A DNA stretch of 64,000 bases from an uncultured virus (IMG/VR IMGVR_UViG_3300036766_002285) (lineage: Duplodnaviria > Heunggongvirae > Uroviricota > Caudoviricetes), in the IMG/VR virus record IMGVR_UViG_3300036766_002285. One strand, written 5' to 3'. The notes under the pieces are model-generated. The model saw only the letters and a program-made list of their open reading frames with translations. It was not told where the DNA came from and made no database searches. Below are positions 9,122 through 55,446 of the stretch, piece after piece (position 1 is the first letter of the stretch; every line of letters begins with the position of its first letter). The position numbers and the translations under genes are program-made.

Positions 9122-9784
9122 ATGACTCAATCACTCACAAGACCCCAAGTGCTAGAAGCTATAGAAGCTAAACAGAGCTTAGCAGATATTTTGTTAAACA
9201 ATGCAGATTTACATGACATAGATTTTAAAGGTATCAGCTTAGCTTCTGCCAGTCTCGTGGGGGCCAATTTACAAAATGTTAACATGTCGCATTGTGATCT
9301 AACTAGAATTAATTTCAGAGAGGCTAATCTCACTTGTGCAGATCTATCCTACACCCTTCTAGCCGGAAGCAGATTCTTTAACGTACAGGCCGAGGAAATA
9401 AATTTGGCTGGCGCCAATCTTACTAAAACAGACATTTTTTCCGGCATTTGGCACCATGCAAATCTATCAAATATCATTATGTGCGGACCTTCTATTAAAA
9501 AATATCCTGATCTTCAGTACAATACTTCTTGCTCTCATGCAGATTTAAAAGAAGCTAATATGATTAATGCTGATATGAGAAATGTGTATTTTGGCGGCGT
9601 AAATTTCAGTGAAGCTAATTTAACAAAAAGTGATTTACAGGGATCCGATTTCACGTATGCATGTTTCAATAACACAATACTTGAAGATGCGAACCTGTTT
9701 GAAACAAAAATAGATTTAGCACAACTAAAAACCGCTGTTCTGACCAGAACTATTATGCCAGACGGTAGTATTCATGGCTCGTAA
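9122..9784 (+). CDS. Pentapeptide-repeat protein (array 1)
   Basis: Rfr repeats, tail TIMPDGSIHGS. Confidence 0.9.
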   Translation: MTQSLTRPQVLEAIEAKQSLADILLNNADLHDIDFKGISLASASLVGANLQNVNMSHCDLTRINFREANLTCADLSYTLLAGSRFFNVQAEEINLAGANLTKTDIFSGIWHHANLSNIIMCGPSIKKYPDLQYNTSCSHADLKEANMINADMRNVYFGGVNFSEANLTKSDLQGSDFTYACFNNTILEDANLFETKIDLAQLKTAVLTRTIMPDGSIHGS

Positions 9785-10418
9785 ACTTATCCGTACTCAA
9801 GTCCTAAAAATTATAGAAGCTCAAGGTACTTTAGCTAATACTGATTTAAGAGATATTGATTTGCATGGAATTGATTTTAATGAAATTAGTTTATCTGAAG
9901 CCTACTTCTATCATGCGGATCTCAGCTATGCCAATCTCTCCAATTGCGATTTAACTAGAGCTGTATTAAGTTTTGTTACGGCAAACGACGCCAATTTCTC
10001 GAACAGCTCTCTAGCTGGAACGTCTATATCCAATATCACGGCCGAAAACGCCAATTTCTCTTCCGCCAATTTAACTAGAAGTTTTACATCAGATAGTTCT
10101 CTTCAATGTGCGAATTTTAGTTATGCTAATTTAGCAGGTACTGGGTTTGAGGATTTTTATACGAGTTTTTTTCACGTAGATTTAGCAGGTAGCAATTTTA
10201 CCTGCGCTGATATGCGTGGTATATTTATACAGAAAACGAATTTGGCAGATGCTAACCTAAGTAGTGCTGATTTGAGCCACTCTCAACTAGAAGACGTCTT
10301 GTTTGCTGGAGCAAATCTTTACAACTGTGATTTTACGGCCGCTACTTTAACAGACACCTATTTCGACGATGTCGTATTGACCGGAACTATCATGCCAGAT
10401 GGCGTACTACATGTCTAG
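9774..10418 (+). CDS. Pentapeptide-repeat protein (array 1)
   Basis: Rfr repeats; first 63 nt identical to the 8447 gene. Confidence 0.9.
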   Translation: MARKLIRTQVLKIIEAQGTLANTDLRDIDLHGIDFNEISLSEAYFYHADLSYANLSNCDLTRAVLSFVTANDANFSNSSLAGTSISNITAENANFSSANLTRSFTSDSSLQCANFSYANLAGTGFEDFYTSFFHVDLAGSNFTCADMRGIFIQKTNLADANLSSADLSHSQLEDVLFAGANLYNCDFTAATLTDTYFDDVVLTGTIMPDGVLHV

Positions 10419-11115
10419 ATCTAGGATTCTTCATTACCCCGTTCTTACACGCCAAGAAGTGCAAGAAGTGGCTAAAATTAAAGGAAGTCTCGCTGAAACT
10501 AATTTAGGTGCCCTCGATCTTAGTAATATAGATTTCTCTGGTATGGATTTTTCTGATGCCATATTGAGCAGAGCTAACCTTCGAGGCGCTAACTTATCCG
10601 GCTGTGATCTAACTAGAACTTTTCTATGGTCAACAGTAGCAACGGGTACCAATTTCGAAAAATGTTCTCTATCAGGTTCCCACATGGATGAGATACAAGC
10701 CATGGGTGCGAATTTTCATGAAGCGAATTTAACCAGAGCTTCTTTACAAAAAGCTGATCTTTCCGGCGCTGATTTTTCACTTTCTAATATATCCGGGTCT
10801 GGAGATTTTTCTGCAATATTTACTAGGGCAAACCTGGCCAATGCTAATTTTAGAGCAGCCAATATGTATGGTGCAACTCTTAATGATACTATATTGACTG
10901 GCGCTGACTTAAGTTTCGCTGATTTAAGATTCGCTGATTTACAAGGCGCCAGGCTCAGACATGCTAATCTAGAAAATACTAATCTACTGGGGGCAAAATT
11001 TACAAATGCAAATCTTGGAGATGCAAATCTAGCAGGTGCCAAAATTGACTTGAGCCAACTTCGTTGGGCTGCCTTGATTGGTACTATTATGCCAGACGGA
11101 ACAATCCATTCATAA
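10411..11115 (+). CDS. Pentapeptide-repeat protein (array 1)
   Basis: Rfr repeats; start placed at the ATG overlapping the upstream tail. Confidence 0.9.
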   Translation: MSRSRILHYPVLTRQEVQEVAKIKGSLAETNLGALDLSNIDFSGMDFSDAILSRANLRGANLSGCDLTRTFLWSTVATGTNFEKCSLSGSHMDEIQAMGANFHEANLTRASLQKADLSGADFSLSNISGSGDFSAIFTRANLANANFRAANMYGATLNDTILTGADLSFADLRFADLQGARLRHANLENTNLLGAKFTNANLGDANLAGAKIDLSQLRWAALIGTIMPDGTIHS

Positions 11116-11184
11116 AACTATATCTTGTTTGACCGTATAGACAGCGCGCTTATAGTTTATTATTACAAAAAGGGAGATATTAAT

Positions 11185-11841
11185 ATGAGTAAAGCAAAAT
11201 TAACCAGAAATGATGTTATTAGACATACAAAAGACCATAATAGTCTACAAGGCTCAGATCTTGCAGACCTGGATCTCCACGAACTGGATTTTTTCGCAAT
11301 GAATTTAAAAGACACTAATCTATACGGTGCTAACCTAAGAGGAGCCCGCCTTTGTTGGGCGGAGCTGGACCGTGCTGATTTACGGGTGGCAAATCTTGTT
11401 GGTGCAAATTTAAATGAGGCTAGAATGGAAAATGTAAAACTATGTAAAACTAATCTAACAGACGCTAGGCTAGATGAGGCCCGTCTTCAAGATGCTGATT
11501 TAACCAGAGCAATTCTAACGGGTGCAAACTTATCAAGTGCATGGTTGATGCGCGCGGATCTAACAGCTGCTGATCTAACTAGAGCTTATATGTCGGGGGC
11601 TAATTTAGAGGAAGCTATCCTCATAGACGCTAAGCTAGCTGGATTCGGGGATCATGAAGGTACCAACACAGAGATGTGGCAGACTAATCTAAGGCGCGCA
11701 GATTTAACCAGAGCTGACATGCGTGGAGTTAACTTAAGCAATGCTGATTTAACAGGTGCTATTGTAAAAGATACCAACTTTGAAAATGTTATCTGGTTCC
11801 AAACCACGATGCCTGACGGGACTAAGCGTTCCAATAATTAA
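11185..11841 (+). CDS. Pentapeptide-repeat protein (array 1)
   Basis: Rfr repeats; SD AGGGAG; promoter TTGACC-N16-TATAGT at 11129-11156. Confidence 0.9.
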   Translation: MSKAKLTRNDVIRHTKDHNSLQGSDLADLDLHELDFFAMNLKDTNLYGANLRGARLCWAELDRADLRVANLVGANLNEARMENVKLCKTNLTDARLDEARLQDADLTRAILTGANLSSAWLMRADLTAADLTRAYMSGANLEEAILIDAKLAGFGDHEGTNTEMWQTNLRRADLTRADMRGVNLSNADLTGAIVKDTNFENVIWFQTTMPDGTKRSNN

Positions 11842-11890
11842 GTATCTTCACTCCCCCATATTGCCATTATAGAAATTTTAGCATTAAAAT

Positions 11891-17199: not shown

Positions 17200-17217
17200 T
17201 ATAATACTCCTGTTCTA

Positions 17218-17507: not shown

Positions 17508-18242
17508 TCAAGTGTGTCTGGTACCATCTGGCATAATAGCGCCTTTAAGGTCGCATCCGGGGAAATTTGTGGTCATATTGGTAGCTCCAAAAAAGTTAGC
17601 ATTACGCATAATAGTATTTGTAAATAGTATTTCTTGTAAATTAGCACAACTGAAGTTTGCATTGCTCAAGTCAGCATTTGTGAAATTAATACCGTTTAAG
17701 TCAGTTAATTCTAGATTAGCACCCGTAAAATCAGCGTTAGAGCAATTACAGTTGAATAACACCGTACCCCGCATATCAGCAAAACTCAAATTTGCAGAAG
17801 CTAACTCAGTAGTGTGTAACTGCGTTTTATATGTATCTCCCATTCCAGCTAGATTAGCTCTCTCTAGATTTGCATTAGTCAGATTTGCTTTTGTGAGGCC
17901 ACATCTTGTTAAATTAGCACCCGTAAAATTAACATGTTCGGCCGCTACGAAAGACAAGTTACAACCAGCAAGGGAAGCGTGTGATAGGTCAGCATATGCT
18001 AAAGTAGCTCTATATAATGTACTTTTTGTTAAATCACAAGAATTAAGATTAGCACCGTAAAGATTAGCAAACATTAAATCGCAGTTTGAGATATTCATGT
18101 TAGATAAATCCATATGCTCAAGATCAATTCCATACAGACCTTCATTGGTTCCAAGAACTGTATCCCGTAACTCAAGCCCAGCTAGACTGCCTTTAGTTTT
18201 TATTATTTCTAGAATATCAGATCTCAGAATTCTGTGTAGCAT
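17508..18242 (-). CDS. Pentapeptide-repeat protein (array 2)
   Basis: Rfr repeats, tail AIMPDGTRHT, SD GAGGAGG. Confidence 0.9.
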   Translation of the reverse strand: MLHRILRSDILEIIKTKGSLAGLELRDTVLGTNEGLYGIDLEHMDLSNMNISNCDLMFANLYGANLNSCDLTKSTLYRATLAYADLSHASLAGCNLSFVAAEHVNFTGANLTRCGLTKANLTNANLERANLAGMGDTYKTQLHTTELASANLSFADMRGTVLFNCNCSNADFTGANLELTDLNGINFTNADLSNANFSCANLQEILFTNTIMRNANFFGATNMTTNFPGCDLKGAIMPDGTRHT

Positions 18243-18260
18243 GCTAACCTCCTCGGGCCA

Positions 18261-18917
18261 TTACTTACTAATTGTGCCGTCTGGCATAATTGTATTTTCT
18301 AGTAAAGCTCGCGCAACGTCGCAATTTACCATTGAGGCTTGAGATAAATTTGTGCGACATAGTATGGTTTTATCTAATTCTGCATTATTAAAATTTGCAC
18401 CAATAGCAAGAGCATCTGTTAAGTTTGTGTTAGCTAAACAAGCAAAGTTGAAACCAACACCGCGCAAATCAGCCGAAATGAAAGTTGCACCCAGCAAATC
18501 AGCGTAAAATAACTCCGTTCTGTAAATTTCACCATAACCAGCCATATTGACCGCATTTAGGTTAGCATTTTGCAGCCTGGCTCTTATTATGTTAGCTCTT
18601 GTTAGATTGGCCTTATAAAAATTACACCCCCCAGCTTCTGTCATAGAAAGATCTGCGCCCGCCATCGCGCTGTTCGAAAAATCAACCCCAACCAGGTTTG
18701 CCGCATAGAATATTGTCCTAGTTAGATCACAGTTTGATAAATTAGCAAAAGTTAAATTTGCCTCAAATAAATTTGCTTCAGATAAATTCATATTAGATAA
18801 ATCACAGCCACAAAGATCAACCCCCCGCATATTAGCACAAGCCAAGCTTCCTCCAGCCATAACAATGGCTAAAACGTCAGATTTAGAGAGTCCGGGAGTT
18901 ATTATTTGGTTAGTCAT
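18261..18917 (-). CDS. Pentapeptide-repeat protein (array 2)
   Basis: Rfr repeats, tail TIMPDGTISK. Confidence 0.9.
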   Translation of the reverse strand: MTNQIITPGLSKSDVLAIVMAGGSLACANMRGVDLCGCDLSNMNLSEANLFEANLTFANLSNCDLTRTIFYAANLVGVDFSNSAMAGADLSMTEAGGCNFYKANLTRANIIRARLQNANLNAVNMAGYGEIYRTELFYADLLGATFISADLRGVGFNFACLANTNLTDALAIGANFNNAELDKTILCRTNLSQASMVNCDVARALLENTIMPDGTISK

Positions 18918-19560
18918 GCACGCTTCCGTCGAACATGATAGTTCCAGTCAAATTTGCAAAACTAAAATTGGCACCGGAGATATTGCAGTTTGTAAGGTTT
19001 GCTTTACTTAAATTGGCATATGCAAAGTCTGCATTGCTTAAGTCCGCGCCCTCAAGGTCAGTTCCAGTTAAGTTTGCTTCTTGCAGGGATGCTCTCGCAA
19101 AACACACTTTTCGCATATCGGCTCTACTTAGGTCAGCTTTTATTAGTTTGATATGAGTTCCGCCCCTAGCTAGATTTCTGGTATCTAGCATGATTGCACC
19201 AATCAAGTTGCAGTAACTAAAGTTAGCCCCAGTGAGTTTTGTTTTACTCAAATTCGCCTCAAATAAATTTGCCCCCGCAAGATCTGTATAAAACATACGT
19301 GCTCCAGTTAAATTTGAATGAGACAGATCGGCATTTTTTAGTCTAGAATTGTTCAATTCCACTCTGGTCAAGTCACACCCTTGCATATTTACCCCCTCTA
19401 AATCAGCACCTAACAACTCAGCCCCTGCTAAACTTAACGAAGCAAAATCTACACCAGCTAATTTAGCAAAACGTAAGTCATAACCAGCCAAACTTTGACG
19501 TTTGTCTATCATCGCTAAAATATCTTCCCGTTCTATTGCTTCTTTAGTTAATTTAATCAC
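18910..19560 (-). CDS. Pentapeptide-repeat protein (array 2)
   Basis: Rfr repeats; probable GTG start inside the upstream tail. Confidence 0.9.
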   Translation of the reverse strand: MIKLTKEAIEREDILAMIDKRQSLAGYDLRFAKLAGVDFASLSLAGAELLGADLEGVNMQGCDLTRVELNNSRLKNADLSHSNLTGARMFYTDLAGANLFEANLSKTKLTGANFSYCNLIGAIMLDTRNLARGGTHIKLIKADLSRADMRKVCFARASLQEANLTGTDLEGADLSNADFAYANLSKANLTNCNISGANFSFANLTGTIMFDGSVHD

Positions 19561-20146
19561 GTATGGTTCCATCCGGCATAGTAGCTCCTTTAAAGTTGGC
19601 TCCTTGGACCTGTGAATTTCTCAAGTCAGCTTTAAATAAATTCGCGCAACCAAAATCAGCATCTGTTAAATTTACATGACTTAAGTCAGCCAATTCCAGG
19701 TCCGCTCTAGTAAAGTTAGCGTCACTGAAATCAGCATGTAATGTCAGCGGATGTTCTTTTCCTCGGCCAACCATAATCGCCCCGGTCAAGTCTGCACCTT
19801 GAAAATCAGAGTCTCCTAGATCACACTTAGTTAAGTTTGCCTCAAACAGATTCGCTCTCCTGGCCACCACAAAGCGCATGTCAGCCCCAGCTAGGTTCGA
19901 GCGAGACAAGTCGGCGTCTGTCAAATTTGCTCGCTGCATCTGCGTTCTAGTCAAATCACAATTTGACATATTAGCGCCTGTTAGATTTGTCATCCATAAT
20001 ATGGTGGAAGCAAGACTTATTCCTGAAAAGTCAACACCACTCAGATCCAAATTTTTCAGATCCGTTTCAGCCAAGCTCGCACCCCGCGCTACAGCACTCA
20101 GAACATCGAGTCTTGTTCTTCCATAATTATTGTTTGCACCACTCAT
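19553..20146 (-). CDS. Pentapeptide-repeat protein (array 2)
   Basis: Rfr repeats; start inside the upstream tail after GGGAG. Confidence 0.9.
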   Translation of the reverse strand: MSGANNNYGRTRLDVLSAVARGASLAETDLKNLDLSGVDFSGISLASTILWMTNLTGANMSNCDLTRTQMQRANLTDADLSRSNLAGADMRFVVARRANLFEANLTKCDLGDSDFQGADLTGAIMVGRGKEHPLTLHADFSDANFTRADLELADLSHVNLTDADFGCANLFKADLRNSQVQGANFKGATMPDGTIRD

Positions 20147-20804
20147 GTACACTCCCATCTGGCATAATAGTGCCAAAAAGCCTAGCAGTTTTTAACTGTT
20201 CTAGCTCTACTTGAGCTTTAAATAAATTTGCGCGACTCAAATCGGCATTTGTAAAATCTGCATTGCTTAAATTAGCATTTTCTAGATCTGTATTTGTTAA
20301 ATTGGCGCAGCTCAAGTTTGCTTTACTAAAAAATGCACCTCTAAAATCTCCACGACTTAAGTCAGCACCCTCCAAGTCCGCGTAATAAAATACAGTTCTA
20401 TATTTGTTGCCATCACCACAAGCCGTCACCCCTATTAAATTAGCTTGATTTAAGTCACTGTGCTGCAAATCTGCTCTAGTTAAATTTGCGCACATGAAGT
20501 TAGCTTCTTCGGCTCTCACATGTGATATATCAGCACCTGACAAATTTGAATAGGACAGGTCTGCATCTTCTAGAATTGCATCATAAAGGTTTGCTTTGGT
20601 TAAATCACAATGAGAAAGGTTAGCACCAGTTAGATTAGATCTGACAATTAAAGCATTTGCTAAACTAAGGTGCGCAAAATCAACATCTCGTAAATTAATT
20701 CCATATAAATCGGCAGCAGCTAAAGTACTGCTGTTAGCTATTATCAGAACCTGTTCTCTGGTATATTTTAGTCTCTCTGAATAGGGGGTTGTTCTCTCAA
20801 GCAT
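20127..20804 (-). CDS. Pentapeptide-repeat protein (array 2)
   Basis: Rfr repeats; start inside the upstream tail after GGGAG. Confidence 0.9.
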   Translation of the reverse strand: MLERTTPYSERLKYTREQVLIIANSSTLAAADLYGINLRDVDFAHLSLANALIVRSNLTGANLSHCDLTKANLYDAILEDADLSYSNLSGADISHVRAEEANFMCANLTRADLQHSDLNQANLIGVTACGDGNKYRTVFYYADLEGADLSRGDFRGAFFSKANLSCANLTNTDLENANLSNADFTNADLSRANLFKAQVELEQLKTARLFGTIMPDGSVHEWCKQ

Positions 20805-21468
20805 GTATGCTCCCATCGGGCATAATTGTATTTTCTAGGTAAGCAACGCTATCATGCTCGCCTACCGAAATGAGGTGGGTTAATTCGGTGCCTATGATAG
20901 TAGCTTGAAATAGGTTAGTCTGACGCAATTTAGCACGCCCCAGATGTACGTAGTTCAGGCTAGCACCCTGGAGATTTGCATTCGAGAGGTCGGCACCTGC
21001 TAAGATGGCGTGGTCGAGTTTCACTCCCCGCATGTCAGCAAATTGGAGGTTTGCCTCGAAAAAATTGGCGTAGGTTGCTTGAGTTTGATAATCCTCTCCG
21101 ACACCTACCATATTCACTTCGCACATATTAGCATTCTGTAGCTGCGCTCTTGTCATAACAGCTCTAGTCAGATTAGATTTATAAAAATTGGCACCCTTAG
21201 CAATTGCCATAGATAAATCCGCCCCAGCAAGGGAGCTATTAGATAAATCAGCATTTGTAAGTTCTGCTGCAAAAAACACTGTTTTAGTTAAATCGCAGCT
21301 GTTAAAATTAGTGCCACTAAGCTTTGCATCAAATAACAGTGCTCCGGACAGATCCAAACAAGATAAGTCACAACCGCGTAAGTCAATTTCTCGCATATCA
21401 CAGCCGGCTAAGCTTTCGCGAGCCACTATCATAGCCAGCACATCATGTTTTGTAAGTTTAGTTGTCAT
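20797..21468 (-). CDS. Pentapeptide-repeat protein (array 2)
   Basis: Rfr repeats; close paralog of the 18261 gene. Confidence 0.9.
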   Translation of the reverse strand: MTTKLTKHDVLAMIVARESLAGCDMREIDLRGCDLSCLDLSGALLFDAKLSGTNFNSCDLTKTVFFAAELTNADLSNSSLAGADLSMAIAKGANFYKSNLTRAVMTRAQLQNANMCEVNMVGVGEDYQTQATYANFFEANLQFADMRGVKLDHAILAGADLSNANLQGASLNYVHLGRAKLRQTNLFQATIIGTELTHLISVGEHDSVAYLENTIMPDGSIHA

Positions 21469-21482
21469 ACTGTAGTTTTCCC

Positions 21483-22130
21483 CTATCCACGTATACTCCC
21501 GTCTGGCATTATAGTATTAGAAAATATAGCATCATCAAAATTACCATTGTGTACTGCTCTAAATAAACTTGTCCCATGCATGTTTGCAAAACTGAACAAA
21601 GTCCCCTCTATATATGCATGTTGTAAATTTGCAAAAGTTAAATTTGAAAAAGACAAGTTAGAGCGAGTTAGAGCCACTCCACGCATGTCAGCATCACAAA
21701 AATTAGCATTCTTTAGATTGCATCCAGATAAATCTGTGCTTTGTGGGTAACAAACACCTGCCATATTTGCATCACAAAAATTAGCATTCTCTAGATCAGA
21801 CCCCCATAAACTAGCCTTGGTCAAGTTAGCACATGAAAAATTTGCGCCACAGCCGACCATACTTGGAAGTATCGCACCGCTCAGCATTGTGTTTGACAAA
21901 TTAGCATTTATAATCACAGCCCCCGCCAAACAAATTCGAGTCAAATCACAATAAGAAAAATCAGCGCAAGTCAAGTTGGCCTCTGTCAGGTCAGTTCTAT
22001 ATAAGGTTAAGCCAGTAAAATTTACGTAGGCTAAGTCAACCCTAACCATATTTAATTCAGCCAAACTCTCACCTCTGCCTATTAATGTCAGCACGTTTTT
22101 GCGGCTAAGAGTAGATGAATTTTTAATCAT
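21483..22130 (-). CDS. Pentapeptide-repeat protein (array 2)
   Basis: Rfr repeats; start inside the upstream tail. Confidence 0.9.
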   Translation of the reverse strand: MIKNSSTLSRKNVLTLIGRGESLAELNMVRVDLAYVNFTGLTLYRTDLTEANLTCADFSYCDLTRICLAGAVIINANLSNTMLSGAILPSMVGCGANFSCANLTKASLWGSDLENANFCDANMAGVCYPQSTDLSGCNLKNANFCDADMRGVALTRSNLSFSNLTFANLQHAYIEGTLFSFANMHGTSLFRAVHNGNFDDAIFSNTIMPDGSIRG

Positions 22131-22851
22131 GTATACTCCCATCTGGCATGATTGCGTTTGTTAGGATGCAATTTGTTAAAATAGCGCCTTTCAGCTCGGC
22201 TCCGAATAAATCAGCCGCCGTCAAGTCAGCTGAACTCAAGTCAGCATTTGTGAAGTTAGCTTCACTCAAGTCAGTTCCACGCAAAATCGTATTTTGTAAT
22301 ATAGCGTCCTCAAAATAAGCATTCCCTAGTTTTGCAGAGTTAAAATTAGCGAAACTAAGATTTGCACCCTTGAAATTTGCATCGTAACAATGTGTCCCCC
22401 GCATATCTGAGTTTTGTAAATTGGCGCAAGTAAAATCGGCTTCGTCTAAGAAAGTAATGAATTTAAAATCATCTTCCTCGTTCGCCGAAGGCGTCTCAAT
22501 TCCGCCCATCATTACTCCCTCCAGATTGGCATAGCTAAAGTTTGCATAGCGCAAGTCCGCCCTGGTTAAATTAGCATAACTAAAATTCGCACGCAAAGCC
22601 TTTATATGTGTCATAAATGCTCCAGCTAAAGCACATTGCGTCAAATCAGCATCCACAAGAATTGCTCCCCGCAAATCAGCTTTAGTTAAATCACAATTGG
22701 AGAGGTTAGCACGTGATAGATCAGCAGAAGGTAATTCAGCACAAGAGAAATCTATATGAGAAAGGTCTATACCGCACAACACAGCCCCAGCCAGGCTGCC
22801 AGATGCTGCAAGTACAGTTAGTACTTTTTCTCGACTATACGTTTCAGCCAT
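22123..22851 (-). CDS. Pentapeptide-repeat protein (first gene of array 2)
   Basis: Rfr repeats, long acidic loop GGIETPSANEEDDFKF, SD AAGGAG. Confidence 0.9.
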   Translation of the reverse strand: MAETYSREKVLTVLAASGSLAGAVLCGIDLSHIDFSCAELPSADLSRANLSNCDLTKADLRGAILVDADLTQCALAGAFMTHIKALRANFSYANLTRADLRYANFSYANLEGVMMGGIETPSANEEDDFKFITFLDEADFTCANLQNSDMRGTHCYDANFKGANLSFANFNSAKLGNAYFEDAILQNTILRGTDLSEANFTNADLSSADLTAADLFGAELKGAILTNCILTNAIMPDGSIHD

Positions 22852-27057: not shown

Positions 27058-27714
27058 ATGATTCATAGACTTTCCCGTGCTCGGGTTCTAGAAATTATAG
27101 CAAGTAAAGGGACTCTGTTTGAAGCTGACCTAGGAGGCCTTGATTTGCATGGAATTAATTTTGCGGGCATAAGCTTAGCCGAAGCAAATTTAAACGATAC
27201 CAATCTAACCACCGCCAATTTGTCCAATTGTGACCTAGCCAAAGCAAGCTTTTGTGGCGCACTTATGAAAGACGCTAACCTATCTTATTCAAATTTGGCT
27301 GGAGCATGTATGTCAGGGATAGACGGCGAGAGAGCTAACTTTTTTGAAGCAAATTTAACCAAAGCAGATTTGGATGAGGCCAACTTAAGCAGCGCCATCT
27401 TAACAGGAGTGGTCGCTGCTGGTTTGGGGATAGCGCCCCACACTGATTTGGAGTATGTACTAGTATGTGGTACAGATCTCAGCGATGCCAATCTAAGTCG
27501 TGCGGATTTTAGAGGTGCAGATTTTTTTGGAGCTGATTTTAGTGGCGCAGCTCTGGTAAATACAGATCTAGAAAATACTAATTTAGAAAACACAGACTTC
27601 TCTGATGCTAATTTGGGCGGAGCAAATCTATTCAAATCGTATATGAAAAACACAAATCTTAATGGAGTTCTTCTGGTAGGCGCTACCATGCCTGATGGGA
27701 CCAAACATGAATAA
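27058..27714 (+). CDS. Pentapeptide-repeat protein (array 3)
   Basis: Rfr repeats, tail ATMPDGTKHE. Confidence 0.9.
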   Translation: MIHRLSRARVLEIIASKGTLFEADLGGLDLHGINFAGISLAEANLNDTNLTTANLSNCDLAKASFCGALMKDANLSYSNLAGACMSGIDGERANFFEANLTKADLDEANLSSAILTGVVAAGLGIAPHTDLEYVLVCGTDLSDANLSRADFRGADFFGADFSGAALVNTDLENTNLENTDFSDANLGGANLFKSYMKNTNLNGVLLVGATMPDGTKHE

Positions 27715-28357
27715 TAAGACTCCAAAACTTACTCGCCAGAAAGTGCTAGCAATAATAGCAGCCAGAGGTACTCTAGCTGAGACCAATTTACGCGGAGTTG
27801 CTTTACATGGAATTAACTTTTCTGGCACTAGTTTAGCTGAAGCTGACCTAACAAAGGCCAACTTGACAGGTGCGAATTTGTCCAATTGTGATCTAGCCAA
27901 AGCAAATTTCAAAGACGCACTCCTAGAAGGTGCTGATCTATCACGCTCGAACCTGGCTGGAGCTAGTCTGTACAATACAAAAAGTAAAAATGCTAACTTT
28001 TTCAAAGCAAATTTAACTCGCACATTTATGTACGGTTGCGATCTTAGGCATGCTAATTTAGTTGAAGTAACAGCCTGCGGCTTTGGTGCAGATAACCACG
28101 TGTTGATTGGTTATGTAGATCTAAGGTCGGCCAATTTAACGCAAGCAGATTTTAGAGGCGCAGATTTTGAAAAGTCTAATTTTTCGCAAGCAAATTTGAC
28201 AAACACAGATTTAGACAACGCTAACCTAAAAGATGCAAAGTTTACAAGTGCTAACTTGAGTGGAGCTAATCTATTTAAAGCCGCAGTTAAAATGAGGCAA
28301 TTAGAAACCGCTATACTTTTCGGCACCATCATGCCTGCCGGAGAAATTCATGAATAA
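27707..28357 (+). CDS. Pentapeptide-repeat protein (array 3)
   Basis: Rfr repeats; start inside the upstream tail. Confidence 0.9.
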   Translation: MNNKTPKLTRQKVLAIIAARGTLAETNLRGVALHGINFSGTSLAEADLTKANLTGANLSNCDLAKANFKDALLEGADLSRSNLAGASLYNTKSKNANFFKANLTRTFMYGCDLRHANLVEVTACGFGADNHVLIGYVDLRSANLTQADFRGADFEKSNFSQANLTNTDLDNANLKDAKFTSANLSGANLFKAAVKMRQLETAILFGTIMPAGEIHE

Positions 28358-28374
28358 GTACAATCGGTGTTTCT

Positions 28375-29043
28375 ATGTCTAGTAAACTAACTCGTATTAA
28401 AGTCTTAAAAATTATAGCAAGCAAAGGCACCCTATTTGAAGCAGAACTAGAAGGGCTTGATTTACATGGAATTAATTTTCTTGGTATCAGTTTATCTGGG
28501 GCCAGTTTACAAGATGCTGACCTGTCGCGTGCTAATCTAACCAGTTGCGATTTAGTCAGAGCTTGTCTTCATGCAACAAATTTAGAAGGTGCTGACTTAT
28601 CTCACTCAAATTTGGCTGGAGCTAATATGTCAGGTATACAAGGTAAGAATGCTAACTTCGTGTGCGCAAATCTAACCAGAGCAGATATAGACGAAGCTAA
28701 CCTAAGTGGTGCGAACCTAAAAGGAGTAGTCGCCGCAGGTTTTGGGGTAGCAGGCACAAGCAGTCAAGCTGAGTTCGTGTATATTAGTCATACAGATCTA
28801 TCTCGCGCTGATCTAAGTCATGCAGATTTTAGAGGCGCCTATTTTAGAGGCACAAATTTTACCCAGGCAAATCTAACAAACACTGACCTAGAAAATGCTA
28901 ATTTAACAAGGATAAATTTTACAAATGCTAATTTGCAAGGCGCAAACCTGTATAATTCCGAGGTGGAAAAGGCAAACCTTAGCAGAGCTATCCTGAAGGG
29001 CACTATTATGCCAGACGGCAGCGTCACAAGCAGCAGCAAATGA
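28375..29043 (+). CDS. Pentapeptide-repeat protein (array 3)
   Basis: Rfr repeats; close paralog of the 27058 gene. Confidence 0.9.
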   Translation: MSSKLTRIKVLKIIASKGTLFEAELEGLDLHGINFLGISLSGASLQDADLSRANLTSCDLVRACLHATNLEGADLSHSNLAGANMSGIQGKNANFVCANLTRADIDEANLSGANLKGVVAAGFGVAGTSSQAEFVYISHTDLSRADLSHADFRGAYFRGTNFTQANLTNTDLENANLTRINFTNANLQGANLYNSEVEKANLSRAILKGTIMPDGSVTSSSK

Positions 29044-29084
29044 TTAGTCTAAAGGTGTCACTCTAATGGTAATCATAATATTTA

Positions 29085-29744
29085 ATGGCGGTATTGTTAA
29101 TGGTTAAACAAAAATCTACTGTAAAAGAAGTCATAGAGATTATAAATAATAGAGGCAGTTTACAGAATATTGACTTATCCTATCTAGATCTATCCAACAT
29201 TGATTTTCTCGGTATAGGTTTATCCAAAATTGATCTGAGTCATGTTATTTTAAAGAGCTCAAATCTCTCTCATTGTGATTTAACCGAATTTTATGCCTCC
29301 GGTGTAGATTTATCTTCTACCAATATTTCTAGTGGCGCACTTGCCGGAGCCGCTATATATAAGTCCAAAGCCTGTGGCGCTAATTTTTTCGAAGCAAATT
29401 TAACCAAGTCATCCATACAAGAGTCTGATTTCAGTAATACAAATTTCACCGGAGCAATCATGGCAGGTTTTGGTCTTAAGTACGCCACATATTTAACAAA
29501 AGTAAATTTTAAACAAGCTACATTTGTTCGTGCAGACCTTCGAGGGGCATGCTTTAAAGATGTAAATTTTGAGAGAGCAGATCTAGAAGGAGCCGACCTA
29601 GAAGGAGCAATTTTTATAGGCTGTGATTTTAATGGTACAATATTTAAAAAGGCAAACCTCACCCACTGCAGCATAGAACTAACACTACTTAAAAATGCAG
29701 ATCTCACAGACTGCACCATGCCAGATGGCACCATCCATGCATAG
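29085..29744 (+). CDS. Pentapeptide-repeat protein (array 3)
   Basis: Rfr repeats, tail CTMPDGTIHA. Confidence 0.9.
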   Translation: MAVLLMVKQKSTVKEVIEIINNRGSLQNIDLSYLDLSNIDFLGIGLSKIDLSHVILKSSNLSHCDLTEFYASGVDLSSTNISSGALAGAAIYKSKACGANFFEANLTKSSIQESDFSNTNFTGAIMAGFGLKYATYLTKVNFKQATFVRADLRGACFKDVNFERADLEGADLEGAIFIGCDFNGTIFKKANLTHCSIELTLLKNADLTDCTMPDGTIHA

Positions 29745-29753
29745 TTTACTTGT

Positions 29754-30401
29754 GTGGCTAATATGATTACTAACCTTTGCCGTAGAGACGTCGAAGCCAA
29801 GATAGCACTAGGCACGAGTTTAGCTGAAACGGACCTAAGAAATTTAGATCTTCAAAGTATAGATTTCACAGGTTTATCTATTAATGACGCTCACCTAGGC
29901 GAAACAAACCTGTCTTCAGCCAATCTATCCAACTGCGATCTAACCAGGTCGTATCTTGGTCGGACTGACCTTACCTGTGCTAATTTATCTTACTCAAATT
30001 TGGCTGGCGCTGAACTATACTGGATAAATGCGGCCGGTGCCGATTTTAGTTTTGCAAATTTAACCAGAACAACCATTCATGAATCTAATTTTAGTAAAGT
30101 CATTATGACTAATGTAGTTGTAGCTGGTTATAAAAAATACGGCGCACTTATACTTTATACTGATTTTACCGGTGCTATTTTAACTAATTCTGATCTGCAA
30201 GGCTCCACACTTGAGGGCTCGATTTTTGACGATGCTGATTTGCGCTGTTGTAATTTACAAGGCACTGATTTAAGCGGAGTAAGTTTTCAAAACACAATAC
30301 TTAAAGGCGCTAGTTTATTTAAATCAGCTTGTAAACTTTCACAGCTTGCAAGCTGTGATCTGACACAAACAATTATGCCAGATGGAACAATACATGTATA
30401 A
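29754..30401 (+). CDS. Pentapeptide-repeat protein (array 3)
   Basis: Rfr repeats, tail TIMPDGTIHV; start uncertain (29754 or 29763). Confidence 0.9.
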   Translation: MANMITNLCRRDVEAKIALGTSLAETDLRNLDLQSIDFTGLSINDAHLGETNLSSANLSNCDLTRSYLGRTDLTCANLSYSNLAGAELYWINAAGADFSFANLTRTTIHESNFSKVIMTNVVVAGYKKYGALILYTDFTGAILTNSDLQGSTLEGSIFDDADLRCCNLQGTDLSGVSFQNTILKGASLFKSACKLSQLASCDLTQTIMPDGTIHV

Positions 30402-30437
30402 GCACAGATCAAACACAAACAAACCAAGGAGCATATA

Positions 30438-30884: not shown

Positions 30885-30964
30885 CAACCATTCATTTATA
30901 GAAATTCCTAGCGCCAACGGTATAATCCATGTTACTCGCTAGGCACAAAAGGAGATAAATATAC

Positions 30965-40779: not shown

Positions 40780-41406
40780 ATGAATATAACAAAACTTAAC
40801 GTTGAGCAGATCTTAGAAAATGCTGACTTATGTAAGGATTTTAATGGCGTAGATTTAAGCGAGTTAAATCTCAGAGGTATAAAGCTTAGTGAAGCCAATT
40901 TATCTGGTGTAAACTTGTGCCGCACAGACCTATCTAAAGCCGACCTATACAAAGTAAATCTCAGTCGTGCTACTTTAGATAAGGCGTCATTCACACTCGC
41001 CAATCTTAATTATGCACTCTTTACTGCAGCGTCGCTGTCAAAAACAGATTTTAGAGCTGCTCACCTCTATAAAGCAGACTTTGAGGGGAGCATTGCAACG
41101 TCTGCAAAATTTACTGGCGCAGATCTTGAAAGCGCTAATTTTGAAGGTGCCGACCTTAGTTTCACTTTATTTGATAAAGCGTATCTTTTATATGCCAATT
41201 TATCTAAAGCTAATCTAAAACAAGCTTTTATGCTGGGAGCCGATTTTACTTCGGCTGATTTAACTGGAGCTAATCTTCATGGTGCTGATTTAACAGGTTG
41301 TAATCTTCAAGGTGCAAACTTAACCGGCGCACAGCTTTTTGAAACCATCCTTGCCTATACAAATCTAACCAAAACAATAATGCCAGATGGAAGCATTCAT
41401 GAGTAA
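40780..41406 (+). CDS. Pentapeptide-repeat protein (array 5)
   Basis: Rfr repeats, SD AAGGAG, tail TIMPDGSIHE. Confidence 0.9.
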   Translation: MNITKLNVEQILENADLCKDFNGVDLSELNLRGIKLSEANLSGVNLCRTDLSKADLYKVNLSRATLDKASFTLANLNYALFTAASLSKTDFRAAHLYKADFEGSIATSAKFTGADLESANFEGADLSFTLFDKAYLLYANLSKANLKQAFMLGADFTSADLTGANLHGADLTGCNLQGANLTGAQLFETILAYTNLTKTIMPDGSIHE

Positions 41407-42016
41407 AAATATTAGTTTGAAACACAATGACCGAAAAATTGTCGAATTTAATGACAAATATGGTAATAAAAAGTTTTTAATTTGTGGCAATGTCTCTGCA
41501 TCCAACGTAACAAACCCTTCGTCTGCTACTACCTTTATTATAGATCGTCTTGAGGATATTGATTTAAAACGACCATGGCCTATTGCACATATAGACTTAA
41601 GACAAGTAACGTTCGACTTGACAGATCTTAGTGGCACGCGTTTCCATAGTGTAAACTTTGAAGGAGCATCCTTGCGTGGGACTAATCTGCAGGCGTCTAT
41701 TTTAACTAACGCAAACCTACAAGGCGCCGACATGTCTCAAGCAAATCTCAGGGACGCTGATCTTGATGATGCAAACTTACAAAAAGCAAATTTCTATCAA
41801 GCTGATCTAGCGTATGCAGATCTGGGGGACGCGAACCTTCAAAAAGCAAATTTTATTGAAGCTAACCTAACACATGCCCATTTGTGGGGGATAGATTTTA
41901 ATGGAGCCAATTTTTCTTCTGCCAATCTTTATGGTTCAGAGTTAGATTTTGATGTTGATTTCTTATGTGCGACATTTGCAGGTGCTACCATGCCAGACGG
42001 GAGTATTCATGAGTAA
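41399..42016 (+). CDS. Pentapeptide-repeat protein (array 5) with extended non-repeat N-terminus
   Basis: Start inside the upstream tail; tail ATMPDGSIHE. Confidence 0.9.
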   Translation: MSKNISLKHNDRKIVEFNDKYGNKKFLICGNVSASNVTNPSSATTFIIDRLEDIDLKRPWPIAHIDLRQVTFDLTDLSGTRFHSVNFEGASLRGTNLQASILTNANLQGADMSQANLRDADLDDANLQKANFYQADLAYADLGDANLQKANFIEANLTHAHLWGIDFNGANFSSANLYGSELDFDVDFLCATFAGATMPDGSIHE

Positions 42017-42971
42017 AAGTAATCTATCTAGAGAACAAGTATTAGCAAGACATGCGACCGGAAAAGGTCTCACCAAAATGGATTTATGCGGGCTAAACTT
42101 GGCTCATTGTTCTTTGAATAAAGCGGATTTCCATGAGTCTCTAATGAACGATATTGTTTTCGTGGAGTCTAATCTTGAATATGCTGATTTTTCGCACACT
42201 AAATTAAACAGTTCTAATTTTGATAACACCCATTTAATCCACGCAAATTTTAAAGGATCTGAGCTAGCTAAAAGTACTTTTATTCGCGCACGAGCAGATC
42301 ATATGAATTGCATGGGCGCAGATCTGACCTCAGCCAATTTATCTGGAGCAATTATGATAGGAGCTAGTTTTGTAGATGCCGAAATGCCTCACGTCAATTT
42401 AACTAGAGTTGAGGCCACACATGCAGCTTTTACTGGCGCTAACTTAACTGATGCAAATATAGCTGGATTCGGAAAATATTCTGCTTATTTTTATCAGGTC
42501 TATTTTATTAAGACCAATCTAACAAGAGCTGACCTGCAAGGAGCTTTCTTATTTGAAGCAAGCTTCAATCAGGCTAACCTTACCTATGTAAATCTAACTG
42601 GTGCTAATTTAATACGTGCTGACCTTTCTCAAGCAAATATGTCACGAGCTAATCTTGAACGCGCATATATGCAAGGCGCTAACTTGTTTGGTGTTAACTT
42701 GTCTATGGCAAACTTTAATGGGGCGAATTTGAGAGATGCGGATTTAAGGTTCACTAATTTATGCAATTGTGTCTTTACGAATTCAAGTCTAAGTGATGCT
42801 GACTTACGAGGTGCTAATTTGTATGGTGCTGACTTTACTAATACAAACTTAAGCGGTGCTGACTTTACCGGTAGCCAATGTGAAAATACTTGTTGGGACG
42901 GCGCCCTATTTGAAAATACTATTATGTCTGATGGGACTATAAGAAACAGCGCCGACAAGGACGAAAGCTAA
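42009..42971 (+). CDS. Long pentapeptide-repeat protein (array 5)
   Basis: Start inside the upstream tail after GGGAG; tail TIMSDG. Confidence 0.9.
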   Translation: MSKSNLSREQVLARHATGKGLTKMDLCGLNLAHCSLNKADFHESLMNDIVFVESNLEYADFSHTKLNSSNFDNTHLIHANFKGSELAKSTFIRARADHMNCMGADLTSANLSGAIMIGASFVDAEMPHVNLTRVEATHAAFTGANLTDANIAGFGKYSAYFYQVYFIKTNLTRADLQGAFLFEASFNQANLTYVNLTGANLIRADLSQANMSRANLERAYMQGANLFGVNLSMANFNGANLRDADLRFTNLCNCVFTNSSLSDADLRGANLYGADFTNTNLSGADFTGSQCENTCWDGALFENTIMSDGTIRNSADKDES

Positions 42972-42972
42972 T

Positions 42973-43257
42973 ATGCGTAGTATTATAGTAACCACTGTGA
43001 AAAATAATGAGACGTTTATCTACACTTTTGAGGTAGACAGCTGGATGACTAGCTGTACAGTGCAGCGGATCGATGTAGATACAGAAACATTTGCTAGTAT
43101 CTTTAATACTATAGAAATACACTCGTCAACAAGCATACCTACGGATGTTAAAATCGGTCAAAATTTCACATTTGAGGTATTGGCTGGCTACAATAATGAT
43201 CGACCGCACGTTGTGTTAGCTGGTTCAGTCGTTTCTGTTGATCAAAAAGAGCTGTAA
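42973..43257 (+). CDS. Hypothetical beta-rich protein within PRP operon
   Basis: Abuts both neighbours (1-2 nt gaps). Confidence 0.6.
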   Translation: MRSIIVTTVKNNETFIYTFEVDSWMTSCTVQRIDVDTETFASIFNTIEIHSSTSIPTDVKIGQNFTFEVLAGYNNDRPHVVLAGSVVSVDQKEL

Positions 43258-43259
43258 AC

Positions 43260-43715
43260 GTGGGTGCGCTAAATAGACAAGAAGTCATAGCAAGACTACA
43301 AAACAGAGATACCCTAGCTAGAGCCGACTTAACTTGTGTGGATTTGAGCGATTTAGATCTAAGAGAAGTTAATCTGTATCAAACAAACCTTAAGAACGCT
43401 AACTTGAACAGATCTGACCTATCCCATAGTGTGCTGTGGAGAGCGAGCCTTAATAAAGCAACATTGCATGGAACCAATCTATCATATACCATTTTAAGCG
43501 GGGCATATCTTCATAATGCCGAACTACCCCATGCGAATCTAAAATATGCAAACTTAACCGACGCTAATTTATGTGGGGCTGATTTAATGTACGCAGACCT
43601 CTCATATGCAGACCTGTCAGGTGCTGATTTAACTGGAGCCCATATATTTGGAACAATATTTGATAATACTATTTTGACTAACACGCTTATGACTAATGGC
43701 CTGGTCCTAGAGTAG
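43260..43715 (+). CDS. Pentapeptide-repeat protein (array 5)
   Basis: Rfr repeats, tail TLMTNG. Confidence 0.9.
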   Translation: MGALNRQEVIARLQNRDTLARADLTCVDLSDLDLREVNLYQTNLKNANLNRSDLSHSVLWRASLNKATLHGTNLSYTILSGAYLHNAELPHANLKYANLTDANLCGADLMYADLSYADLSGADLTGAHIFGTIFDNTILTNTLMTNGLVLE

Positions 43716-43779
43716 TAAATGCCTCCAAACTAAAGTCGCACAATTGGCCCCTATAGTAGACTTATATCAAAGGAGCAGC

Positions 43780-44841
43780 ATGACTAACCAGGATAGTAAA
43801 TGTAAAAATATTGAGATTCTAGTATCGCAAGGCTCAGATCTTGCTGGGTCAAAATTGGCCGGTGCTAATTTGTTTAAAGCGAACCTTAAAGGTGCGAAGT
43901 TGTCGAAATCTGATCTAAAAGAGATAAACCTTGAAAAAGCTAACCTAAAATATGCTGACTTAAGTGGCTGTGACCTGCGTGGTGCTGATTTAAGAGAAGC
44001 TAACTTTAAGTGCGCAAACCTATCTTTTGCTAATTTAACCAATGCAGTTTTAGATAATGCCTATATGGACCAAGCGGATTTAAGAGGAGCTATGTTTGTT
44101 GATGCCGCTTTGAGTGCGGTATCTTTTATAGGCGCCAAACTGCAACAGGCCAACTTTGAGGGAGCTGATTTGAGAAACGCAAATTTTTTTCACACAGACC
44201 TGACAAATGTAACCTTGACCGGTGCTGACTTGTTGGGGGCAACGTTGTGCGGGGCTAATTTAGCTCATTGTGGGCTCGATGGCGTATATTTTTATGACAC
44301 TCGTCTTGACAAAACAGATTTTAAAAATCTTGATTTACGTAAAGTATCTTTTGAACGTGCTTCAGTTAAAAATGCAGATTTTAGCTGTGCAAATCTTAGA
44401 GGCGTGAATCTTTACAAAGCAAATCTTGAGGGTTCTCTCTTTATTAACGCTAACTTGGACATTGCTACTCTTATGAGTGCTCAAATGATGGGTGCGAATC
44501 TGACCGGTGCTACCCTTCGACAAGCGGACTTGCGGGGCGCAGACCTAAGTAAAGCAAATCTAAATGTAGCTGATATGTTTGGAGCAAACCTTGCTAGTGT
44601 TGTGTTGGCGGGAGCTAATCTTAGATCTGCAAACTTAGAGGAGGCTGATTTAACTAATGTCGATCTAAAAGGTGCTAATCTTAGATGCGCTAATTTACAA
44701 AAAGCTATTTGTATTGAAACAGATTTCAGTGGTGCTGATTTGACTGGAGCAAATTTATTAGGCGCGAACGCTACTTTGGCAAACTGTAGGGGTGCTATTC
44801 TCGATAGTGTTATTTTGCCAGACGGAACTGTCTATAAATAG
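43780..44841 (+). CDS. Long pentapeptide-repeat protein (array 5)
   Basis: Rfr repeats, SD AAGGAG before ATG 43780, tail VILPDG. Confidence 0.9.
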   Translation: MTNQDSKCKNIEILVSQGSDLAGSKLAGANLFKANLKGAKLSKSDLKEINLEKANLKYADLSGCDLRGADLREANFKCANLSFANLTNAVLDNAYMDQADLRGAMFVDAALSAVSFIGAKLQQANFEGADLRNANFFHTDLTNVTLTGADLLGATLCGANLAHCGLDGVYFYDTRLDKTDFKNLDLRKVSFERASVKNADFSCANLRGVNLYKANLEGSLFINANLDIATLMSAQMMGANLTGATLRQADLRGADLSKANLNVADMFGANLASVVLAGANLRSANLEEADLTNVDLKGANLRCANLQKAICIETDFSGADLTGANLLGANATLANCRGAILDSVILPDGTVYK

Positions 44842-52575: not shown

Positions 52576-52580
52576 GGTTT

Positions 52581-54384: not shown

Positions 54385-54418
54385 ATTTAAGTATACGTTT
54401 AAGACGGGGTTTAGATTG

Positions 54419-54721
54419 TTAGCCGGCGATATATTTTTTGGTAATTGCCCATGTGATATAGTGTATTGTTTGACCTTCTGCTTTTGCTATCCAGTAAATA
54501 GCGTCGGCTGCTAGCATATCAAAATCGCTAAGGCGTTGCATTGGTACGAATACGTGTTGGCCGCTAATGGTATCTCTATAACCTTCGCGGAGATCATTTT
54601 TACGCTCAAGAACCCAACGAGGGTTGGCTTGTAGATATGTAGGAATGGTAGTGACATCCATAGTGGCTACAATATCAGATAAACTAAGACCTTTTATATA
54701 TACTTCCTGTGATTCGTTCAT
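54419..54721 (-). CDS. Hypothetical protein
   Basis: ORF; start uncertain. Confidence 0.55.
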   Translation of the reverse strand: MNESQEVYIKGLSLSDIVATMDVTTIPTYLQANPRWVLERKNDLREGYRDTISGQHVFVPMQRLSDFDMLAADAIYWIAKAEGQTIHYITWAITKKYIAG

Positions 54722-54803
54722 TGTGTAGTCTTCTTTGTGCAAGTTGATATCTTATTATCATACTATATGCGCGAGCGTGACTGTATCAAATAGATATCTA
54801 GTT

Positions 54804-55235
54804 TTAGATGTCTGGTGCGGGTTTTCTGACCATATCATCAGCCAGCGGGGGCATCATTTCTAAAGAACCACTAAATATGCTATCGTCAGGCATCATTGTT
54901 TTTTTAAATATGGCTCCGTTTGTATTAACTTTTTTTGTAAGTGCACACTCAAAAGTTACCCCGGTTAGATTTGTATTAGCCAAATTAGCATAAGAAAGAT
55001 CCGTCCAGCTAAAATCTGCGTAACTTAAATCAGAGCCCGCGAAGTTAACACCTCTGAGATCTGCATAATAAAAATATGTGCCTTTAAGGCAAGCACCATG
55101 AAAATCAGCATGTTTTAAGCAAGCTCCGCCTAAATCTATACCTGCCCACGATTCTCCATATATCAAAACTAGTGAGTTACCGTCTCTATCAATAAAATGA
55201 ATGTTTTGCGAGTTTATTTCACCGGTATCACTCAT
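54804..55235 (-). CDS. Pentapeptide-repeat protein, second N-cap type
   Basis: HFIDRDG..LIYGESW cap; start inside the upstream tail after GGGAG. Confidence 0.88.
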   Translation of the reverse strand: MSDTGEINSQNIHFIDRDGNSLVLIYGESWAGIDLGGACLKHADFHGACLKGTYFYYADLRGVNFAGSDLSYADFSWTDLSYANLANTNLTGVTFECALTKKVNTNGAIFKKTMMPDDSIFSGSLEMMPPLADDMVRKPAPDI

Positions 55236-55446
55236 GAATACTCCCATCTGGCATGGTAGCGCCACTAAAGTTTGTTCCATGACATTGAGTCTCATTAATA
55301 TTTGCTAGATACAGATTAGCACCCGATAAATCTGCTCCTTGCAAATTAGCGCCTTTTAGATCAATATTCTCCCAATCTTCGCCCCATTTTAGAACAGCTT
55401 TTTTACCGTCACGAGTTGTGAATTTAACATCATTACGCTCAATCAT
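55228..55446 (-). CDS. Minimal pentapeptide-repeat protein (72 aa), second N-cap type
   Basis: KFTTRDG..LKWGEDW cap, ~7 repeats, full tail ATMPDGSIHE, SD AGGAG. Confidence 0.85.
   Translation of the reverse strand: MIERNDVKFTTRDGKKAVLKWGEDWENIDLKGANLQGADLSGANLYLANINETQCHGTNFSGATMPDGSIHE

Follow-up and report, generated by a model that had tools for sequence, protein, structure and literature searches.

The subject of this analysis is a family of pentapeptide-repeat protein (PRP) genes, and the short sequences at which neighbouring members of the family are joined, in a stretch of DNA of 64,000 nucleotides from an uncultured virus (IMG/VR record IMGVR_UViG_3300036766_002285). This whole stretch, referred to below as the window, appears to be part of a metagenomic contig of 616,293 bases and has a G+C content of 41%. 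It contains about 36 PRP genes, which occupy approximately one third of its length and are organized in five same-strand arrays, detected from open reading frames (ORFs) and Pfam matches:

7851..11841, plus strand: array A, six tandem PRP genes (7851, 8447, 9122, 9774, 10411, 11185), from ORFs, with PF00805 for 9122-9784.
17508..22851, minus strand: array B, eight tandem PRP genes (22851, 22130, 21468, 20804, 20146, 19560/19572, 18917, 18242), from ORFs, with Pfam for 22123-22851.
27058..32913, plus strand: array C, eight PRP genes, from ORFs and Pfam.
40780..44841, plus strand: array D, PRP genes 40780, 41399, 42009, 43260 and 43780, from ORFs and Pfam.
54804..56146, minus strand: array E, PRP 56146-55478, a mini-PRP of 72 amino acids at 55446-55228, and PRP 55235-54804.

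Array C is broken by a nucleoside deoxyribosyltransferase-like gene at 30438-30884, and the mini-PRP of array E falls below the 80-amino acid cut-off of the ORF list. All ten of the PRP ORFs that were scanned match PF00805 above the 20.2-bit cut-off (examples are 101.9 bits for 9122-9784, 162.4 for 22123-22851, 152.9 for 41399-42016 and 64.2 for 54804-55295). Two unrelated N-terminal types occur among the PRPs, one with a helix of the form LTRxxVL, and the other, which defines a second subfamily, with a module of about 20 residues that has a pattern like DGxxxxLxWGEDW. The second subfamily comprises 55446-55228, 55235-54804, 41399-42016, 46035-45535 and 50068-49538, one of them only 72 amino acids long, and most of its members carry the C-terminal MPDG tail described below. 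The paralogs are old, with a median tip length of 1.31 changes per site and a DNA identity between paralogs of 62-68%. An additional paralog (P0002), which has the N-terminus of the window family, the sequences SNCDLTKA and ADMRG, and the ending AIMPDGSEHG, probably lies elsewhere on the same contig as the window.

The C-terminus of the family has the form (T/A)(I/T)MPDG(S/T)(I/V)H-x-stop. A six-frame scan of the window yields 30 tails of the MPDGSIH type, degenerate ones included, and at the DNA level ATGCCAGAYGGNAGTATHCAT is found 14 times in the window at ≤2 mismatches, compared with 0 occurrences in 100 shuffles. Since the His is coded by CAT and the last codon begins with G, a tail of this kind places an ATG 8 nucleotides (nt) ahead of the end of the gene; CATG is present in 15 of the 18 H-x-stop tails of the window. 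The original prediction for this DNA held that at 13 junctions the tail ATG is the in-frame start of the next PRP gene, mostly with an 8-nt overlap. All 13 junction coordinates are indeed in-frame candidate starts of full-length PRP reading frames, and the overlap is 8 nt at 11 of them, the others being 11 nt at 9774, where the tail ends in HGS-stop, and 20 nt at 20146, where it ends in HEWCKQ-stop. The start codon is composed of the His or Arg codon of the tail and the base that follows it, which gives ATG (from CAT-G) in 12 cases and GTG (from CGT-G) at 19560. Heads of both N-terminal types start at a tail ATG. The junctions are as follows:

9755..9784, plus strand: tail MPDGSIHGS-stop, next start ATG 9774, 11-nt overlap; sole canonical start before the conserved N-terminus.
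10392..10418, plus strand: tail MPDGVLHV-stop, next start ATG 10411, 8-nt overlap; alternative ATG at 10399.
18910..18936, minus strand: tail MFDGSVHD-stop, next start ATG 18917, 8-nt overlap; sole canonical start before the conserved N-terminus.
19553..19579, minus strand: tail MPDGTIRD-stop, next start GTG 19560 (8-nt overlap) or ATG 19572; start ambiguous.
20127..20165, minus strand: tail MPDGSVHEWCKQ-stop, next start ATG 20146, 20-nt overlap; GGGAG 5 nt upstream.
20797..20823, minus strand: tail MPDGSIHA-stop, next start ATG 20804; GGGAG 5 nt upstream.
22123..22149, minus strand: tail MPDGSIHD-stop, next start ATG 22130; GGGAG 5 nt upstream.
27688..27714, plus strand: tail MPDGTKHE-stop, next start ATG 27707.
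31544..31570, plus strand: tail MPDGSTHG-stop, next start ATG 31563; GGGAG 5 nt upstream.
32187..32213, plus strand: tail MPDGSIHE-stop, next start ATG 32206; sole candidate start listed among the first 60 codons.
41380..41406, plus strand: tail MPDGSIHE-stop, next start ATG 41399; head of the second N-terminal type.
41990..42016, plus strand: tail MPDGSIHE-stop, next start ATG 42009; GGGAG 5 nt upstream.
55228..55254, minus strand: tail MPDGSIHE-stop of the 72-amino acid mini-PRP, next start ATG 55235; GGGAG 5 nt upstream.

At 9774, 18917 and 32206 the region from the preceding in-frame stop to the conserved N-terminal helix contains no other ATG, GTG or TTG, and at 42009 the only candidate starts ahead of the tail ATG are 9-20 codons upstream, within the preceding gene. 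The reading that the tail DNA would hold the start codon of the next gene is supported by this arrangement of frames and candidate starts. Longest-ORF calling moves 9 of the 13 starts to an in-frame start codon 12 to 60 nt farther upstream, and gene annotation should allow for tail starts.

The start was also said to lie often 5 nt after a GGGAG that resembles a Shine-Dalgarno (SD) element. This element is present at 6 of the 13 junctions (20146, 20804, 22130, 31563, 42009 and 55235), where the duplex with the anti-SD sequence has an energy of -6.5 to -6.9 kcal/mol. An energy of -6.5 kcal/mol or better is thus found at 6 of 13 coupled starts, compared with 4.7% of the 2041 ATG triplets in the window; the energies at the other seven junctions are -2.2 to -5.7 kcal/mol. 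Coupled starts taken together (-2.2 to -6.9 kcal/mol) have weaker SD matches than the PRP genes that are free-standing or first in an array, 12 of 13 of which lie between -7.3 and -12.5 kcal/mol, and this difference fits a dependence of the coupled genes on upstream translation. A scan for promoters and terminators between 7700 and 23000 gave counts as in shuffles (39 versus 38.0 ± 5.9, and 18 versus 12.4 ± 4.3).

Signs of selection on the nucleotide sequence of the coupled tails, as derived from codon usage, are modest. Gly is coded by GGG in 7 of 13 coupled tails and in 3 of 17 uncoupled tails, against a background of 13% (binomial p=0.0007, Fisher p=0.056), and the complete GGGAG occurs in 6 of 13 coupled tails versus 1 of 17 uncoupled tails (Fisher p=0.025). 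The codon CCA for Pro, which has a background frequency of 32-36%, is enriched in coupled (9 of 13) and uncoupled (11 of 17) tails alike, and its enrichment is therefore not tied to coupling. The excess synonymous conservation that had been predicted for coupled tails is present, the synonymous codon identity between paralogs being 0.55 in the tail versus 0.37 in the body for coupled genes, and 0.38 versus 0.39 for uncoupled genes. Retention of G in the last codon was considered as a further sign of selection and was rejected, because G is retained in any case by 5 of the 7 single changes from GAR that are non-synonymous and do not create a stop.

The tail is older than the coupling. The pattern MPDGxxHx-stop has 174 matches in 78 of 251 cyanobacterial genomes, versus 4 for the reversed control, and the exact DNA tail, including CATG, ends PRP genes of differing lengths at six bacterial-genome loci (two in Scytonema, one each in Chamaesiphon, a member of the Coleofasciculaceae and a metagenome-assembled genome of the Cyanobacteriota, and a sixth in an uncultured bacterium). 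All six of these genes are solitary, and an in-frame PRP follows the CATG at none of the six loci. All3740 of Nostoc (PDB 3du1), which is taken here to be HetL, has the C-terminus AIMPDGSIH, which aligns with the window tail; a phmmer comparison of 8447-9106 with 3du1_X gives E=1.6e-20, with query residues 21-218 placed on chain residues 38-256, so that the likeness extends over the full length and includes the C-terminal AIMPDGSIH. In a hand count of 150 listed cyanobacterial tails, G begins the codon after the His in 70, CATG is present in 37 and GGGAG in 3, and GGGAG and CATG occur together in none. The caveat attached to the original prediction, that such tails also occur in unrelated PRPs, was thus right and understated, since the whole MPDGSIHE-stop tail, CATG included, ends solitary cyanobacterial PRPs. 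The presence of the tail in solitary PRPs of cyanobacterial type implies that the motif is ancestral and presumably structural, and that its ATG is a latent feature that was fixed and used by the window family.

Relatives of the arrays were sought in two ways. A protein search with a query from array B (22130-22851, the gene without its last two residues) found best relatives of ≤37% identity at full coverage, and a metagenome scan produced 80 loci at ≤39% identity over the full length (46% for one fragment), with no array of the window family among them. A single match to the exact tail pattern in viral contigs was rejected as a chance occurrence within a long ORF, unrelated to the family, on a contig of 2.2 kb. 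Four of the metagenome contigs (L008, L011, L012 and L019) carry several PRP genes ending in MPDGT(I/F)HD-stop with CAC GAC TAA, and an identical sequence of about 20 nt follows each PRP stop on them, which constitutes a recurring gene-end element without overlap.

Comparison of the paralogs with one another indicates how coupling may be gained and lost. Supported sister pairs sit in different arrays or in non-adjacent positions, and three of them, A2/C2, C1/C3 and B3/B7 (the letters denote the arrays), differ in coupling state. A2 is preceded by a spacer of 17 nt and begins at an ATG of its own, and its sister C2 is coupled; the tail of C1 is coupled and that of C3 is uncoupled; and B3 and B7 likewise differ. 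When the C1-to-C2 junction is compared with the C2-to-C3 junction, a spacer difference of 17 nt separates the coupled from the uncoupled head, which suggests that small indels can switch the state.

The best reading of these results, and one that is considered probable, is that an ancestral C-terminal MPDG motif with a latent ATG has been co-opted repeatedly as an overlap start and would serve as the re-initiation start of the next PRP gene at the 13 junctions. The latent ATG would have come first, and small indels in spacers of 14-18 nt would then have toggled junctions several times between a gene with its own ATG after a short gap and a gene with its ATG inside the preceding tail. Each array would be read as one mRNA, on which a ribosome that ends the upstream gene would halt 5 nt beyond the ATG and re-initiate there by termination-reinitiation coupling, aided in about half of the cases by the GGGAG that the Gly-Ser codons place 5 nt upstream. 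Of this reading, the anatomy and frames of the junctions, the codon statistics, the older origin of the tail and the absence of any alternative start at three genes are shown, and the operon transcript, the re-initiation and the direction of the evolutionary switches are inferred.

A number of observations weigh against this interpretation. RNA folding of 60 nt around each of the 13 junctions reveals no shared hairpin (z from -3.36 to +1.49), and the protein and metagenome searches did not find a related genome that would allow the arrangement to be tested for conservation. As samples, the paralogs are not independent of one another, and four of the seven GGGAG tails are in array B. The enrichment of CAT in coupled tails follows from the definition of coupling by the ATG and is therefore circular; since the His codon is fixed by this definition, the comparison that excludes it is the fairer test of synonymous conservation, and in this comparison the coupled-tail identity of 0.47 versus 0.37 is marginal (permutation p=0.058, and 0.077 for the difference). 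CATG or CGTG is kept in six uncoupled tails (8429, 9106, 21483, 28357, 29744 and 30401), which means that keeping the NTG does not require coupling. Finally, a second in-frame ATG, formed from GAT-G, lies 12 nt upstream at 9 of the 13 junctions, and at the 19560/19572 junction ATG 19572 is possibly the real start.

The second ATG at nine junctions favours the possibility that the true starts are elsewhere, either at the GAT-G ATG or at internal or non-canonical codons, with the CAT-G ATG serving only as an internal Met. An AGGAG upstream of 19572, with an energy of -7.9 kcal/mol, also favours this possibility, as does the family member 30971-31570, which seems to use a non-canonical start. At 9774, 18917, 32206 and 42009, however, Asp is coded by GAC, which leaves no ATG 12 nt upstream, and the first three of these genes have no other canonical start of any kind. 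Moreover, eight of the nine upstream ATGs have SD energies of +1.9 to -5.5 kcal/mol, and starting at CAT-G gives N-terminal lengths nearer to those of the free-standing paralogs. Displacement of the starts is given only a slight chance.

The marginal synonymous excess and the six uncoupled tails that keep an NTG count in favour of the possibility that the overlaps are incidental by-products of deletion bias in a dense genome. Whatever in-frame ATG lies close to the end of a gene would then be used, the tail would offer one because CAT-GAN is common for His-Glu and His-Asp, the tail would have no cassette role, and expression would not have to depend on coupling. Overlaps of 8 nt are a common class in prokaryotes, and CATG is found in 37 of the 150 baseline cyanobacterial tails, where no coupling is seen. 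Incidental compaction is nevertheless judged to be unlikely, because the enrichment of GGG and GGGAG is specific to coupled tails, GGGAG accompanies CATG in 0 of the 150 baseline tails, and the SD matches at coupled starts are weak compared with those of free-standing genes. The claim that several genes without a coupled neighbour have lost the His-G holds for the four that had been named, which end in TISK (18261), TKRSNN (11841), SVTSSSK (29043) and TVYK (44841); the six uncoupled tails listed above keep CATG or CGTG, and two of the four, 18261 and 29043, do have a PRP neighbour downstream, beyond gaps. The broader claim that each gene carries the start signal for the next paralog is plausible and partly supported, in that the start is in the tail, is the only canonical start for three genes, and is accompanied by enriched GGG and GGGAG; the synonymous excess is marginal once the His codon is left out.

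The original prediction also proposed that the shared sequence of approximately 25 nt may act as a recombination joint for the growth and shuffling of arrays. On this view the tail with its ATG would be a crossover site for the gain, loss and shuffling of PRP genes, and the junctions would be scars left where a tail was joined to a head. One junction gives this proposal a concrete case:

9721..9842, plus strand: recent mosaic patch across the 9774 junction.

Within the patch, 9721-9776 and the tail of gene 8447-9106 (9046-9101) agree at 52 of 56 nt up to the CATG, and 9774-9842 agrees with the head of that gene (8447-8515) at 67 of 69 nt, including all of the first 63 from the ATG. The two tracts of identity, which join an A2-like tail to an A2-like head, meet at the CATG, and similarity vanishes on both outer sides, the gene bodies being 62-68% identical. 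The patch shows a recent exchange of junction sequence among paralogs, and it accounts for the odd HGS-stop end of 9122-9784. The occurrence of sister paralogs in different arrays, and of heads of different types behind the same tail, is likewise in keeping with a recombination joint. The mosaic is, however, a single case, and it would be explained equally well if about 125 nt had been copied by conversion from a coupled A2-like junction elsewhere on the contig. In addition, exact tail-to-tail matches are short: four pairs of tails have matches of 23, 22, 20 and 18 nt, the other 402 pairs do not exceed 17 nt, and the median is 8 nt. The tails thus share too little exact identity to be suited to ordinary homologous recombination. 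No integrase or recombinase family was found among the 49 window proteins scanned against Pfam, and contigs from one sequencing run, in which the window has a depth of about 41x, gave no trustworthy variant joints; candidate joints in that run had sides of 21-68 nt, 85% likeness and depths like the organism's own, and were read as other paralogs. The proposal has one recent mosaic junction in its favour, is weakened by exact tail identity that is mostly below 18 nt, and is regarded as improbable.

A stronger form of the proposal holds that PRP genes are mobile cassettes joined at the tail-CATG-head sequence, with genes or gene pairs excised and re-inserted as units, perhaps by way of a tail-to-head intermediate in tandem or circular form; it must be considered highly speculative and is doubtful. 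If it were true, the ATG and GGGAG already present in a tail would allow immediate expression of any cassette inserted behind it, and the perfect direct repeats of 63 nt (8447-8509 and 9774-9836) on either side of a two-gene unit of 1327 nt would be the recent scar of such an insertion or excision. The arrays would then represent an integrase-free counterpart of the integron, embedded in coding sequence, which diversifies a large repertoire of DNA-mimic-like proteins on a giant element.

Individual PRP genes show several further peculiarities. PRP 30971-31570 (plus strand) has the conserved N-terminus and no ATG, GTG or TTG ahead of it; upstream, an AAGGAGA at 30949-30955 precedes an ATA (30959) and a CTG (30965), and the gene therefore probably has a non-canonical start. 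Ahead of this gene, 30907-30942 reads PSANGIIHVTR-stop at its end and resembles a decayed tail with CATG, although an nhmmer search with a profile of 20 tails, which recovers the known tails, gives the suspected fossil (30916-30932) no significant score (E=3.3). Another PRP gene, at 14828-16999 on the minus strand, is seemingly split by a TnpB of the IS605 family:

16999-16481, minus strand: N-terminal part of the split PRP.
16346-15921 and 15777-14983, minus strand: TnpB pieces.
14863-14828, minus strand: orphan tail TTMPDGSIYSS-stop.

In the contigs of the one sequencing run, the depth over the TnpB region is about 370-400, versus about 41 elsewhere. A tandem pair of repeats of about 175 nt that are 75% identical (17024-17200 and 17213-17383) lies downstream of array B.

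The non-PRP genes of the window include a CysRS-GluRS fusion, TrpRS, IF3, an NAD-dependent ligase, Fpg, SbcCD, an FtsH-like protease, an intein-bearing SufB, SufA, WhiB, RlaP, HNH and endonuclease VII-like genes, two TnpB genes and a tRNA-Ile(UAU). Those that were characterized individually are:

1611-1685, minus strand: tRNA-Ile, anticodon TAT.
25073-26095, minus strand: TrpRS, best non-self protein match 67% identical, one relative named Actinobacteria.
36375-40619, minus strand: CysRS-GluRS fusion of 1414 amino acids, from Pfam.
50113-52602, minus strand: SufB/D-like gene with an intein carrying a LAGLIDADG domain, from Pfam.
52581-52907: SufA-like gene next to the SufB/D-like gene, from Pfam.

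In the fusion protein, residues 469-766 form the CysRS catalytic domain, which is accompanied by a DALR domain, and residues 950-1408 form a catalytic and anticodon domain of the GluRS/GlnRS type; the N-terminal 468 amino acids have no Pfam match. The fusion gene contains an internal 127-nt repeat (37785-37911 and 38253-38379). ATA makes up 40-42% of the Ile codons in window genes. A dispersed repeat of about 470 nt, 76% identical, occurs near both ends of the window (1857-2312 and 62663-63131), and one copy adjoins a TnpB gene. The strong SD matches at free-standing genes indicate that the translation signals are prokaryotic, and the mixture of genes (IF3, the aminoacyl-tRNA synthetase fusion, ligase, SbcCD, WhiB, HNH, endonuclease VII-like, deoxyribosyltransferase-like and many unknowns) points towards a huge phage or some comparable large element, which is the authors' guess as to the source.

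Several consequences follow if the tails are used as proposed. The family would be a case in which a conserved protein motif has been exapted into a start signal that travels with each gene and serves as built-in operon "glue", and its 13 natural variants in one locus would be a simple model in which termination-reinitiation can be compared in the presence and absence of an SD element. A larger point, which extends beyond the junctions, is that anciently diverged PRP paralogs fill roughly a third of the window.

Coupling of overlapping genes by termination-reinitiation is textbook knowledge for bacterial and phage operons, the gene pairs of the trp operon being an example, and the junctions would be a tidy variant of this ordinary overlap coupling, not a new mechanism. 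They share with it the arrangement of same-strand neighbours, a downstream start that lies a few bases before the upstream stop (at all 13 junctions), and a weak downstream SD; at the 6 of 13 with GGGAG there is also a candidate SD-like element inside the upstream coding region. They differ from it in that the start, and in half of the cases the SD-like site, is within the conserved C-terminal motif of a whole paralog family, and in that one signal is found at 13 junctions, in front of heads of different types. The distinguishing feature is this conserved C-terminal peptide motif carrying a putative coupling signal family-wide, of which a full-text literature search found no account for a PRP tail motif. 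All3740 and the solitary cyanobacterial PRPs belong to the same pentapeptide-repeat fold family and have the same MPDGSIH-x end, but the genes of the solitary type stand alone, with no in-frame PRP after the CATG at the six loci, and their identity to the window proteins is at most about 40%. Integron cassette arrays resemble the PRP arrays in that small same-strand genes have a recurring short sequence at each boundary. In the window, however, the boundary sequence is coding and has no consistent hairpin, with no attC-like inverted repeat at the boundaries when the 13 junctions are folded as RNA; the 49 proteins scanned against Pfam include no integrase; and the genes so joined are paralogs of one another, not unrelated cassettes.

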